This document shows positions 1,945 through 2,717 of a DNA stretch of 64,000 bases, in pieces (the stretch's first letter is position 1; every line of letters begins with the position of its first letter). The notes below the pieces were generated by a model. That model did not search any database and was not told the DNA's origin. It worked only from the letters and a program-made list of their open reading frames with translations. The DNA is taken from sequence record MN850635.1; one strand, given 5' to 3'. Position numbers and translations under genes: made by a program. Origin of the DNA: Escherichia phage bumzen.

Positions 1945-2016
1945 CAGAAGACCAATTACAGCAAACTTAATCTACTCATCTGACACGAAATCGGACAAAG
2001 AAGATATTTGGTCTGG
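1945..2016 (+). ncRNA. stem-closed structured element, family member 1
   Basis: 5' motif CAGAAGACCAATTACAGCAA; 3' motif TTGGTCTGG; AGACCAA pairs with TTGGTCT, enclosing about 50 nt. Confidence 0.4.
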
Positions 2017-2027
2017 TCATTGAGAAT

Positions 2028-2104
2028 TGCGGGTATAGAGAAAGGGCGTCTCACATGTCTCATTAGCATGGTATCGGCAGGTTCGACTCCTGCACCCGCC
2101 TCCA
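2028..2104 (+). tRNA. tRNA-Met-like (anticodon CAT), non-canonical
   Basis: Acceptor TGCGGGT/ACCCGCC with unpaired 1-72; anticodon loop CTCATTA (T at position 37); T-arm GCAGG-TTCGACT-CCTGC; CCA encoded. Confidence 0.45.
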
Positions 2105-2110
2105 ATTTTG

Positions 2111-2170
2111 CAGAAGACCGTATTCAGCAACAAAATACTTTTTGCGGATAAAAGAAAAAACACGGTCTGG
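2111..2170 (+). ncRNA. stem-closed structured element, family member 2
   Basis: 5' motif CAGAAGACCGTATTCAGCAA; 3' motif ACGGTCTGG; AGACCGT pairs with ACGGTCT, enclosing about 40 nt. Confidence 0.4.
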
Positions 2171-2181
2171 CAATGTATTAA

Positions 2182-2258
2182 GGTTAGGAAGCACATAAGG
2201 TATGTGCGGTCGCCTGTTAAGCGAATGGCACAGGGTTCGAATCCCTGACTAACCGCCA
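2182..2258 (+). tRNA. tRNA-Asn (anticodon GTT)
   Basis: Acceptor GGTTAGG/ACTAACC; D-stem GCAC/GTGC; anticodon loop CTGTTAA; T-arm CAGGG-TTCGAAT-CCCTG; CCA encoded. Confidence 0.7.
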
Positions 2259-2266
2259 AATTAAAT

Positions 2267-2354
2267 GTGTCGTTATCCCGTAGATGGTAGCGGTGGGGAC
2301 TGTAAATCCCTTGTCATTGAGACTCGGTAGGTTCGACTCCTACACGGCACACCA
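2267..2354 (+). tRNA. tRNA-Tyr (anticodon GTA), long variable arm
   Basis: Acceptor GTGTCGT/ACGGCAC; anticodon stem GGGGA/TCCCT, loop CTGTAAA; long variable arm; T-arm GTAGG-TTCGACT-CCTAC. Confidence 0.7.
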
Positions 2355-2359
2355 ATAAA

Positions 2360-2436
2360 GGCTATGTAGTTTAACTGGAGAAAATACTCCCCTGTCACGG
2401 GAGATGATGTGAGTTCAAGTCTCATCGTAGCCGCCA
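2360..2436 (+). tRNA. tRNA-Asp (anticodon GTC)
   Basis: Acceptor GGCTATG/CGTAGCC; anticodon stem CTCCC/GGGAG, loop CTGTCAC; T-loop TTCAAGT; CCA encoded. Confidence 0.75.
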
Positions 2437-2497
2437 ATTTTGAGAGGGCTATTTAGCCCCTCCCTTAAAGAGTTCTTACGAGTATTCTTTAAAGGAG

Positions 2498-2573
2498 CAG
2501 AAGACCAAATACAGCAAGAATGTATGATATTTTCAAGCCAATTCAATTTTGAAAAATTTAAAACTTGGTCTGG
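2498..2573 (+). ncRNA. stem-closed structured element, family member 3
   Basis: 5' motif CAGAAGACCAAATACAGCAA; 3' motif TTGGTCTGG; AGACCAA pairs with TTGGTCT, enclosing about 58 nt. Confidence 0.4.
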
Positions 2574-2586
2574 CTCAACAAATTTA

Positions 2587-2717
2587 CAGAAGACCGTTTA
2601 CAGCAAAACTTAAACAATCTATTTCTCGGTAAAGAAAAGGCGAAGGTTCGATTCCTTCACTCGGCAGAGGTCGAGTTGGTGTAATGGTAGCACTTAAGAT
2701 GATAAACAACGGTCTGG
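2587..2717 (+). ncRNA. stem-closed element enclosing a circularly permuted tRNA-like module (Y-RNA-like candidate)
   Basis: AGACCGTT (2591-2598) pairs with AACGGTCT (2708-2715). Inside: T-arm GAAGG-TTCGATT-CCTTC (2642-2658), hairpin ACTCGGC-AGAG-GTCGAGT (2659-2676), D-arm GTGT-AATGGTA-GCAC (2679-2693). Confidence 0.45.

Follow-up and report, generated by a model that had tools for sequence, protein, structure and literature searches.

The Ro60 protein and its Y RNAs form a classic ribonucleoprotein particle (RNP), the function of which is partly understood in bacteria, and phage studies have so far been concerned only with canonical Ro60 proteins, which carry the TROVE domain. Bacterial YrlA RNAs are defined by a T arm, an acceptor stem and a D arm in that order, with a GNCGAAN0-1G motif near the 5' end serving as the Ro60 contact site (PMC4201824). 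Also described are the Yrn1/Rsr/PNPase system of Deinococcus radiodurans (RYPER) and the Ro60 of Thermus phage phiLo with its RNAs Yrl1 and Yrl2 (PMC12135203; PDB 9KOP, 9L5Y). Among phages, canonical TROVE Ro60 proteins together with YrlA-type RNAs are found in cluster C mycobacteriophages, CcrColossus, Bacillus phage G and phiLo. Here, four short elements interleaved with the tRNA genes of Escherichia phage bumzen were analysed within a 64,000-nucleotide (nt) stretch of its DNA (sequence record MN850635.1), the whole of which is referred to as the window. These elements are probably small non-coding RNA (ncRNA) genes, the products of which would be Y-RNA-like partners of a Ro60-like DUF2828 protein encoded by the same phage.

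A close relative of this protein, gp130 of phage Bas63, is a Ro60-like counter of the Ppl defence; its discoverers guessed at Y RNAs among the tRNAs and suspected some of the annotated tRNA genes (bioRxiv 10.1101/2024.10.10.617714). The bumzen protein was found to be 98% identical to gp130 and to share its synteny, directly upstream of the tRNA cluster, and the same four elements were present in unannotated gaps between the Bas63 tRNAs. The candidates proposed here thus differ from those suspected in Bas63, being unannotated inter-tRNA elements and not annotated tRNA genes. Two small minus-strand coding sequences annotated in Bas63, bas63_0137 and bas63_0138 (L216 12749-13023), lie over elements 3 and 4 and the next structured spacer, and are probably mis-annotated RNA genes. 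The labels 'tRNA pseudogene' and 'tRNA-OTHER' used in relatives were rejected as pointers to the elements, as they mark the position of tRNA-Tyr. In a 2025 study of Listeria phage CKA15, three extremely abundant non-coding transcripts were reported less than 2 kb upstream of the homologous gene, the product of which was detected in virions, and the authors speculated on Y RNAs (PMC12282133). The elements found in Listeria phage A511 (see below) may coincide with these CKA15 transcripts. Literature searches on DUF2828 and on the motif UACAGCAA/TACAGCAA returned no description of the RNAs considered here.

The four elements lie on the + strand at exactly the positions given in an initial annotation made from the window sequence alone, and the shared start motif, the closing GGTCTGG and the pairing of AGACCxx with xxGGTCT that it had described were seen in all of them. 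The repeat AGAAGACCNNNTNCAGCAA occurs four times in the 64 kb without a mismatch (at 1946, 2112, 2499 and 2588, all +), against an expectation of 0.14 in shuffled sequence, none of 100 shuffles reaching four copies, and GGTCTGG closes every element (2010-2016, 2164-2170, 2567-2573 and 2711-2717). The 7-nt 5' arm reads AGACCAA in elements 1 and 3 and AGACCGT in elements 2 and 4, and is faced by its perfect complement, TTGGTCT or ACGGTCT, so that the stem residues vary while the pairing is kept, as had been claimed. Common to all four is a module consisting of a 7-bp helix with A-U and G-C at its base, UUA-CAGCAA, a variable interior, the 3' strand and a G. In minimum-energy folds an additional outer helix of 3 bp covaries (GAC/GUC, UGC/GCA, AGC/GCU, UAC/GUA) across an AGA/G internal loop.

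Element 1 (1943-2018, +; core 1945-2016) is located between tRNA-Glu, which ends at 1937, and tRNA-Met, which starts at 2028, and comprises the outer helix (1943-1945/2016-2018), 5' arm (1949-1955), UUA (1956-1958), CAGCAA (1959-1964), 3' arm (2008-2014) and G (2015). Element 2 (2109-2172, +; core 2111-2170) lies between tRNA-Met and tRNA-Asn, and its 5' arm (2115-2121) is followed by AUU, CAGCAA (2125-2130), the interior UUUGCGGAUAAAAGAAAA, the 3' arm (2162-2168) and G (2169). In element 3 (2496-2575, +; core 2498-2573), which has an interior hairpin and is kept in Felixounavirus and Mooglevirus relatives, the corresponding parts are a 5' arm at 2502-2508, AUA, CAGCAA at 2512-2517, a 3' arm at 2565-2571 and G at 2572. 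Element 4 (2585-2719, +; core 2587-2717) has its 5' arm at 2591-2597, then UUA, CAGCAA at 2601-2606, the 3' arm at 2709-2715 and G at 2716. The elements sit 8-12 nt from the ends of the neighbouring tRNAs. In agreement with the initial annotation they are not tRNAs, neither ARAGORN nor the Rfam tRNA model (RF00005) calling any of the four, and they contain no open reading frame (ORF) beyond mechanical TTG- or ATG-started ones of 31-57 aa that merely overlap them. Against Rfam at E <= 10 the elements gave chance-level matches only, such as Dictyostelium class I RNA (24 and 17.5 bits), and tRNA was the sole family to reach its gathering score in the window. A possible fifth element (5175-5381, AGAGCCAUUUGCAGCAA...UGGCUCUGG) was rejected, since it falls inside a 185-aa ORF (5130-5687) and has no match to the covariance model R1 described below.

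Three of the four window RNAs are without a tRNA-like part. Element 4 is the exception and can be read as a permuted tRNA mimic: a hairpin in the position of a variable arm (2618-2640, +; UUUCU-CGGUAA-AGAAA in the minimum-energy fold) is followed by a T-arm mimic (2642-2658, +; GAAGG-UUCGAUU-CCUUC) that is invariant in eight relatives, an acceptor-stem mimic of 7 bp closed by a tetraloop (2659-2676, +; ACUCGGC-AGAG-GUCGAGU) and UG with a D-arm mimic (2677-2693, +; GUGU-AAUGGUA-GCAC). Hairpins akin to the first of these, UUUC...GCAUAGAAA, were seen in many short members of the family. Neither the T arm nor the D arm of element 4 varies across the Ounavirinae, and the acceptor stem occurs in three differing but paired forms, the others being ACACGU/GCGUGU (Sf15, L016) and ACCCUUC-GCCA-AACA-GAAGGGU (L018, L019). 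Long members from seven other phages show the same order of arms with different, mutually complementary acceptor stems, and several encode NCCA after the 3' acceptor strand. The Rfam tRNA model gave a truncated match of 15.5 bits to the T arm of element 4 only. With a generic anticodon arm placed between them, the D and T halves of such elements were put back into the order of a normal tRNA and submitted to ARAGORN. All eight un-permuted elements, from different phages, were called as tRNAs by this test, compared with none of the eight native sequences and none of 200 shuffled constructs.

The gene for the Ro60-like protein (195-1610, +; 471 aa) encodes helical repeats together with a von Willebrand factor A (vWA) domain with a DxSxS...T...D motif of the metal-ion-dependent adhesion site (MIDAS) type. 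Its product was assigned to DUF7788 (3e-43) and DUF2828 (1.5e-29) by Pfam and to PHROG 850, 'RNA-binding protein', and gave no Pfam match to the TROVE domain. A search of PDB sequences with the product found no Ro60, the one match being uridine kinase at E 1.3, and NCBIfam returned nothing real. An AlphaFold model built on 38 homologs (pLDDT 85.6, pTM 0.86) was then compared with the PDB using Foldseek. The top 12 matches were all Ro60 proteins over their full length (Thermus phage phiLo, Xenopus, human and Deinococcus Rsr; E 6e-8 to 2e-6, TM 0.45-0.66), with isolated vWA domains ranking next. The phiLo Ro60 was the best structural match, at 12-16% sequence identity to the phiLo and Deinococcus proteins, and the kinship with Ro60 was thus revealed by fold comparison only, not by sequence searches. 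Residues D279, S281, S283, T349 and D381 are invariant in the 38 homologs, which is the pattern of a vWA MIDAS metal site, as in Ro60. The first element starts 335 nt downstream of this gene, so that the elements neighbour a gene with a predicted Ro60 fold.

Homologs of the DUF2828 protein were found in 709 of 50,697 phage records, including Felix O1, A511-like Listeria phages, KVP40-like vibriophages and cluster L mycobacteriophages; by host, phages of Vibrio, Listeria, Staphylococcus, Campylobacter, Enterococcus, Bacillus and Aeromonas are represented. Among them are 95 mycobacteriophages, in which SEA-PHAGES annotators have named the product 'Ro-like RNA binding protein', and the homolog of the cluster L phage LeBron is toxic on overexpression in M. 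smegmatis. Phage-encoded transfer-messenger RNA (tmRNA) genes were noted within 2-3 kb of the DUF2828 gene in three metagenomic contigs (L070 7210-7701, L084 6260-6750 and L056 1306-1710), and RNA ligase genes within about 18 kb of it in Aeromonas phage LAh_6 and Vibrio phage D479. The neighbourhood of the DUF2828 gene tends to be an 'RNA toolkit'.

The design seen in the window recurs beside the DUF2828 gene of distant phages. In Klebsiella phage FBKp34, Yersinia phage P778 and mycobacteriophage Rumpelstiltskin (52%, 54% and 34% protein identity, respectively), a 5' helix strand runs into (U)UACAGCAA and is followed by a variable interior, the 3' strand and G. In Rumpelstiltskin even the interior of element 2, UUUGCGGAUAA(A/C)AAGAAAA, recurs (L006:5448-5497). 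For a systematic comparison, 80 IMG/VR loci encoding relatives of the protein were fetched, and the design was tested without the alignments being viewed on the 65 loci with 38-47% protein identity. A loose search for any 6-bp stem within 220 nt was dropped as too noisy (125 versus 72 matches on the two strands). The helix was instead required to be a perfect 7 bp with at most one G-U pair, ending exactly 3 nt before CAGCAA. Such a helix was present at 66 of 260 + strand CAGCAA sites, compared with 5-14% in other registers, 4-8% on the other strand and 0-15% for control hexamers. When the second arm position and the position following the 3' arm were additionally required to be G, 56 instances of this strict signature remained in 40 of the 65 loci on the gene strand, and none on the other strand. 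All four window elements show the 7-bp helix 3 nt before CAGCAA and the G after the 3' strand, and lie on the strand of the DUF2828 gene.

Changes on both sides were found in six of the seven helix pairs of a 34-seed alignment. The covariance model R1, the seeds of which had been picked for perfect pairing, so that percent paired is meaningless in them, returned 91 matches at E <= 1 in 655 kb, all on the gene strand. Among 82 distinct non-seed matches, 574 of 574 helix cells held standard pairs, compared with 36-43% in slid controls, and all seven helix pairs showed compensatory changes, in an alignment that is model-fitted and leans to the R1 structure. Within the window, elements 1, 2 and 3, all R1 seeds, scored 41.9, 45.4 and 38.4 bits, and the 5' part of element 4, which is not a seed, scored 18.5 bits; with filters off only the four elements were found, the next match being at 17 bits. 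Copies were detected by R1 beside the DUF2828 gene in Listeria phage A511 and in Staphylococcus, Enterococcus, Bacillus, Campylobacter and Pseudomonas phages, and the module also lies beside DUF2828 genes in Klebsiella, Aeromonas, Yersinia, Vibrio and Mycobacterium phages, the hosts spanning Proteobacteria, Campylobacter, Firmicutes and Actinobacteria. Up to 4-7 copies occur per locus, and between close relatives the interiors diverge and the module stays fixed. The covariance search in other phages that the initial annotation had suggested therefore bore out its claim of a real RNA family, the module being conserved, covarying in its pairing, confined to the gene strand and kept across very distant phages.

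Whether the module follows the protein or the tRNA genes was examined from both directions. In an all-against-all comparison of ORFs from 77 loci, DUF2828 was the only shared family; the next two clusters were antisense artefacts inside the DUF2828 gene, and any other family was found in at most 14 loci. For at least 20 of the loci with elements, no tRNA was found within a distance of 3.5 kb from the DUF2828 gene. In the reverse test, IMG/VR was scanned with the protein-blind pattern AGGNNNNTTACAGCAAAC, which gave 123 matches, and DUF2828 was counted within the stretches examined. A same-strand DUF2828 gene was present for 26 of the 52 matches with an in-register helix and for 4 of the 71 without. 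Of the 52, 48 had the G after the helix, and the gene, where present, was mostly 30-600 nt from the match. On these sequence comparisons the module is linked to the protein rather than to tRNA genes, since DUF2828 is the sole shared family and many loci with elements have no tRNA gene.

With regard to the closest described RNAs, the elements resemble YrlA (RF02553; PMC4201824) in lying beside a gene for a Ro60-fold protein and in having a terminal stem with a presumed protein site. The interior of element 4, with its variable-arm-like hairpin, T arm, acceptor stem and D arm (T to D arm, 2642-2693), has the permuted order by which YrlA is defined, and some relatives encode NCCA in the acceptor loop, like the M. 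smegmatis YrlA that is cut by RNase P. The Rfam YrlA model aligned to the tRNA-like part of the Klebsiella phage member with 39.6 bits (E 3e-5), below the gathering score of 69, and its CGAA-motif region did not match that member. In contrast to YrlA, the conserved site here is a helix with A-U and G-C at its base, the single-stranded UUACAGCAA and a 3' G. At their 5' ends the elements have CAGAAGACC...UUACAGCAA, without CGAA and thus without GNCGAAN0-1G, and the partner belongs to DUF2828/DUF7788 and not to Pfam TROVE. None of the RNAs of canonical phage Ro60 systems contains the helix and UUACAGCAA module. Because the binding motif and the TROVE domain are absent and the Rfam score is too low, we read the family as being of the Y RNA kind but distinct from YrlA. 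The option 'Y-RNA-like' offered by the initial annotation accordingly fits best, in that the module travels with the gene for a Ro60-fold protein and often includes one member per phage with a tRNA-like domain, as in YrlA.

RYPER and phiLo provide a working model, namely an RNA in which one stem binds Ro and another module serves to tether the protein to an effector, and phiLo is a precedent for a phage that encodes Ro60 and Y-like RNAs itself. It was through the CGAA motif, however, that the phiLo and Deinococcus RNAs were found, and the window elements lack this motif. Metazoan Y RNAs (RF00019) are similar in general layout, at about 55-135 nt with paired ends, a variable interior and several paralogous copies per genome, but are RNA polymerase III transcripts with a bulged-C helix carrying GGUCCGA and an interior that is not tRNA-like; no sequence or covariance-model similarity between them and the window elements was detected.

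Several results weigh against a partnership of these RNAs with the DUF2828 protein. The canonical Ro60-binding motif, whether GNCGAAN0-1G or GGUCCGA, is absent from the window elements, and the scan with bacterial Y RNA models proposed in the initial annotation was negative: in the window the Rfam YrlA model matched nothing at its gathering score (69 bits), nor at E <= 10, and the elements are therefore not ordinary YrlA RNAs. The folding energies of the single sequences are modest relative to shuffles (z = -1.2 to -2.1), so the case for the elements rests on comparative evidence and not on thermodynamics, and the R1 alignments carry the leanings given above. Of the 65 DUF2828 loci, 25 have no strict element within 3.5 kb, and for half of the pattern matches with the helix the examined stretch contains no DUF2828 gene. 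A search of these 26 loci with a hidden Markov model for a divergent DUF2828 found nothing, the large neighbouring ORFs being unrelated enzymes. Those among them that look genuine are situated, as in the window, within phage tRNA clusters, here of 10-25 genes. Vibrio phage D479 shows how such matches can arise: an element scoring 49.7 bits stands there between two tRNAs, and the DUF2828 gene follows 9.4 kb downstream on the same strand. Furthermore, gp130 alone, supplied from a plasmid or in the T7 genome, rescues T7 on Ppl hosts (bioRxiv 10.1101/2024.10.10.617714), and the RNAs are therefore not needed for anti-Ppl activity, at least in that setting. For Felixounavirus, finally, the partnership is one that we infer from co-occurrence. 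The Y-RNA-like reading was nevertheless considered probable, and the four rivals taken up below, even when combined, as unlikely.

The module was also found in other arrangements, by which its nature as an autonomous, portable unit of helix and UUACAGCAA is underlined. In two metagenomic members the helix surrounds D, anticodon and T arms that keep their normal order, as in Deinococcus Yrn1. In FBKp34 and D479, cloverleaves of 114-124 nt contain a capped insertion, in which a capped hairpin is followed by UUACAGCA(A), or in D479 also by an ACCGCA variant, located at the anticodon arm or beside it. The FBKp34 example (L003 6003-6116) is annotated 'tRNA' and the four of D479 (L213 27527-27642, 27659-27781, 26498-26617 and 27809-27932, all -) as 116-124-nt 'tRNAs', and ARAGORN reads the insert as an intron. 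These five RNAs appear to represent a second topology of this RNP ligand. Listeria phage A511 has three copies just upstream of the DUF2828 gene, placed after a consensus promoter, and in Rumpelstiltskin three copies stand directly after the gene. Two further TTGACA promoters in A511 (L087 2500-3500; at about 2502 and 2918) precede long unannotated non-coding stretches that adjoin tRNAs upstream of the Ro-like gene, and the second matches the position of the top-transcribed non-coding region of CKA15 (26,236-26,727). Both stretches are without the module and have no significant R1 match.

In KVP40-like vibriophages and in some metagenomic phages, the DUF2828 gene itself has a copy that surrounds or adjoins its Shine-Dalgarno sequence or start codon (L004 3960-4010, with the copy at 3964-4010; L213 13158-13202, -; L027 3446-3511; L028 3446-3489). 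This is the layout expected of a translational operator and suggests autoregulation. It was therefore also possible that the module is only an operator, through which the DUF2828 protein controls its own synthesis or that of neighbouring RNA genes, with no Y-RNA-like role in trans, and at least 15 lineages with a copy less than 135 nt upstream of the DUF2828 start would agree with this. All four window copies, however, lie downstream of the gene, with promoter-like sites and tRNAs in between, 4-7 copies per locus are reached, and conserved tRNA-like domains in two topologies would be needless for an operator. An exclusive operator role was on this basis judged improbable, and the 'regulatory hairpins' of the initial annotation fit less well for a similar reason, as they leave the tRNA-like domains unexplained.

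The position of the window elements, fitted precisely between tRNAs, raises another explanation, that they are cis-acting spacers of the tRNA transcript (recognition or protection sites for RNase E, III or P, or stabilising hairpins) that aid tRNA maturation, with neither a dedicated protein partner nor an existence as separate RNAs. Many metagenomic copies do lie inside clusters of 10-25 tRNAs, and other non-tRNA spacers of the same cluster are strongly structured too. Such spacers would not, however, be expected in the loci noted above with no tRNA within 3.5 kb of the DUF2828 gene, after a promoter of their own in A511 or directly after the gene in Rumpelstiltskin. The conservation of the motif over four phyla with different RNases points to a phage-encoded reader, and the tRNA-mimic interiors and the copies at ribosome-binding sites (RBS) would be unexplained. 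This account was given little credence, and 'processing signals', as the initial annotation had put it, suit the data less well because many copies are elsewhere, in loci without any tRNA gene.

A further alternative is that the module is read by something else (a host protein, a ribonuclease or another phage protein) and that it is found with DUF2828 because both belong to a common 'RNA gene' neighbourhood, not because the protein binds it directly. Both the helix-bearing matches without DUF2828 in the examined stretch and the ability of gp130 to counter Ppl without the RNAs would be accommodated in this way. The comparison of the 77 loci, however, offered no other shared family as a candidate, the next real cluster reaching at most 14; with hosts in Actinobacteria, Firmicutes, Campylobacterota and Proteobacteria a host reader would have to be universal; and the copies over the DUF2828 start codon suggest the DUF2828 protein itself as the reader. 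A different reader was therefore given slightly less credence still. That the elements have no function and are selfish repeats or the remains of duplicated or permuted tRNA genes in decay, as the tRNA-derived arms of element 4 and the 19-nt repeat common to the four copies might suggest, is very unlikely given the compensatory changes in seven of seven helix pairs across phyla, the strict strand specificity, the fixed module amid diverging interiors in close relatives and the covarying acceptor-like stem of element 4.

The window belongs to a Felix O1-like myovirus (Felixounavirus); its first 4.5 kb match 313 phage records, the best being Escherichia phage tootiki (97.9%), with Felix O1 at 94%. 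ARAGORN placed 25 tRNA genes on the + strand between 1776 and 7048. In front of the tRNA and element cluster, a consensus scan gave two sigma-70-like promoter matches (1629-1749, +), namely TTGACA-17-TAATAT at 1629-1657 and TTGACA-18-TAAAGT with a TG at 1720-1749, each with 10 of 12 consensus positions. Because these two promoter-like sites lie upstream and a scan of the window found no terminator-like site on the + strand from there to 6196, co-transcription of the elements with the tRNAs is plausible.

Several other features of the same cluster were recorded. Rfam calls a tRNA of 33.4 bits at 3352-3430 (+) that ARAGORN does not, and Sf15 and Bas63 annotate tRNA-Arg (TCT/AGA) at this place. 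Two ORFs lie inside the cluster, at 3397-3795 (+), which relatives annotate as an HNH homing endonuclease, and at 5130-5687 (+; 185 aa). The 147-nt spacer between element 4 and tRNA-Lys (2720-2866, +) has a closing stem of about 22 bp and folds at -49.1 kcal/mol (z = -5.6, none of 200 shuffles being as good); it opens with GCAGUAGCUU, which is seen again at 3218, is without the CAGCAA module and could be another ncRNA or an RNase III site. A near-perfect long hairpin (4284-4372; z = -4.1) lies within the spacer 4255-4373 (+), and a multi-hairpin spacer (3204-3351, +; z = -3.6) lies directly before 3352. Against Rfam these last two spacers gave weak, chance-level matches only (MIR473, tmRNA fragments).

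For binding, processing and function, the following scheme is proposed. The promoter-like sites at about 1630 and 1720 would drive transcription of the RNAs together with the tRNA cluster, and the RNAs may be released by the enzymes that act on the flanking tRNAs, namely RNase P at the 5' end of the next tRNA and 3' trimming of the previous one. The Ro-like protein would bind the helix and UUACAGCAA module, the helix of which encloses an effector part that is free to vary, in element 4 the permuted tRNA mimic. Through this part, the RNA could gate the protein or tether it to RNases or to enzymes that recognise tRNAs, in the way that Y RNAs act on Ro60 and Rsr, and in some phages the protein would repress its own synthesis at the level of translation through a copy overlapping the RBS. 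Since Ppl is countered by the Bas63 ortholog, the RNP would probably belong to an RNA-level counter-defence and tRNA-maintenance toolkit of the phage. The rescue of T7 by gp130 alone argues for RNAs that modulate the protein or redirect it, and against their being essential to its activity against Ppl.

In its most extended form, the proposal is that a pan-Caudoviricetes RNA family, contained neither in Rfam 15 nor in the literature searched, would be the cognate ligand of the DUF2828 branch of Ro60-like proteins. Its recognition code (a helix with A-U and G-C at the base, single-stranded UUACAGCAA and a 3' G) would be unlike that of all known Y RNAs, and its tRNA mimics would come in three topologies, with the terminal helix around a permuted body, around a body with D, anticodon and T arms in normal order, or as a capped insert in a cloverleaf. 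The module would also serve as a translational operator on the protein's own mRNA, and the RNP, formed with a protein that counters Ppl, would act in tRNA-level conflicts with the host. This combined proposal was held to be evenly balanced between right and wrong.

For gp130 of Bas63 there is a proven anti-defence phenotype without a mechanism, and the two recent studies that guessed at Y RNAs near these genes could not point to them. The present analysis provides candidates, each with its exact coordinates, together with a covariance model and a compact recognition module open to mutation. Dozens of unannotated or mis-annotated phage features have also been flagged, including the spurious coding sequences of Bas63 and the 116-124-nt 'tRNAs' of D479. 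What a phage Ro-like protein binds, whether RNA gates or redirects its anti-Ppl activity, and why such RNAs lie in tRNA clusters are thereby opened to testing.

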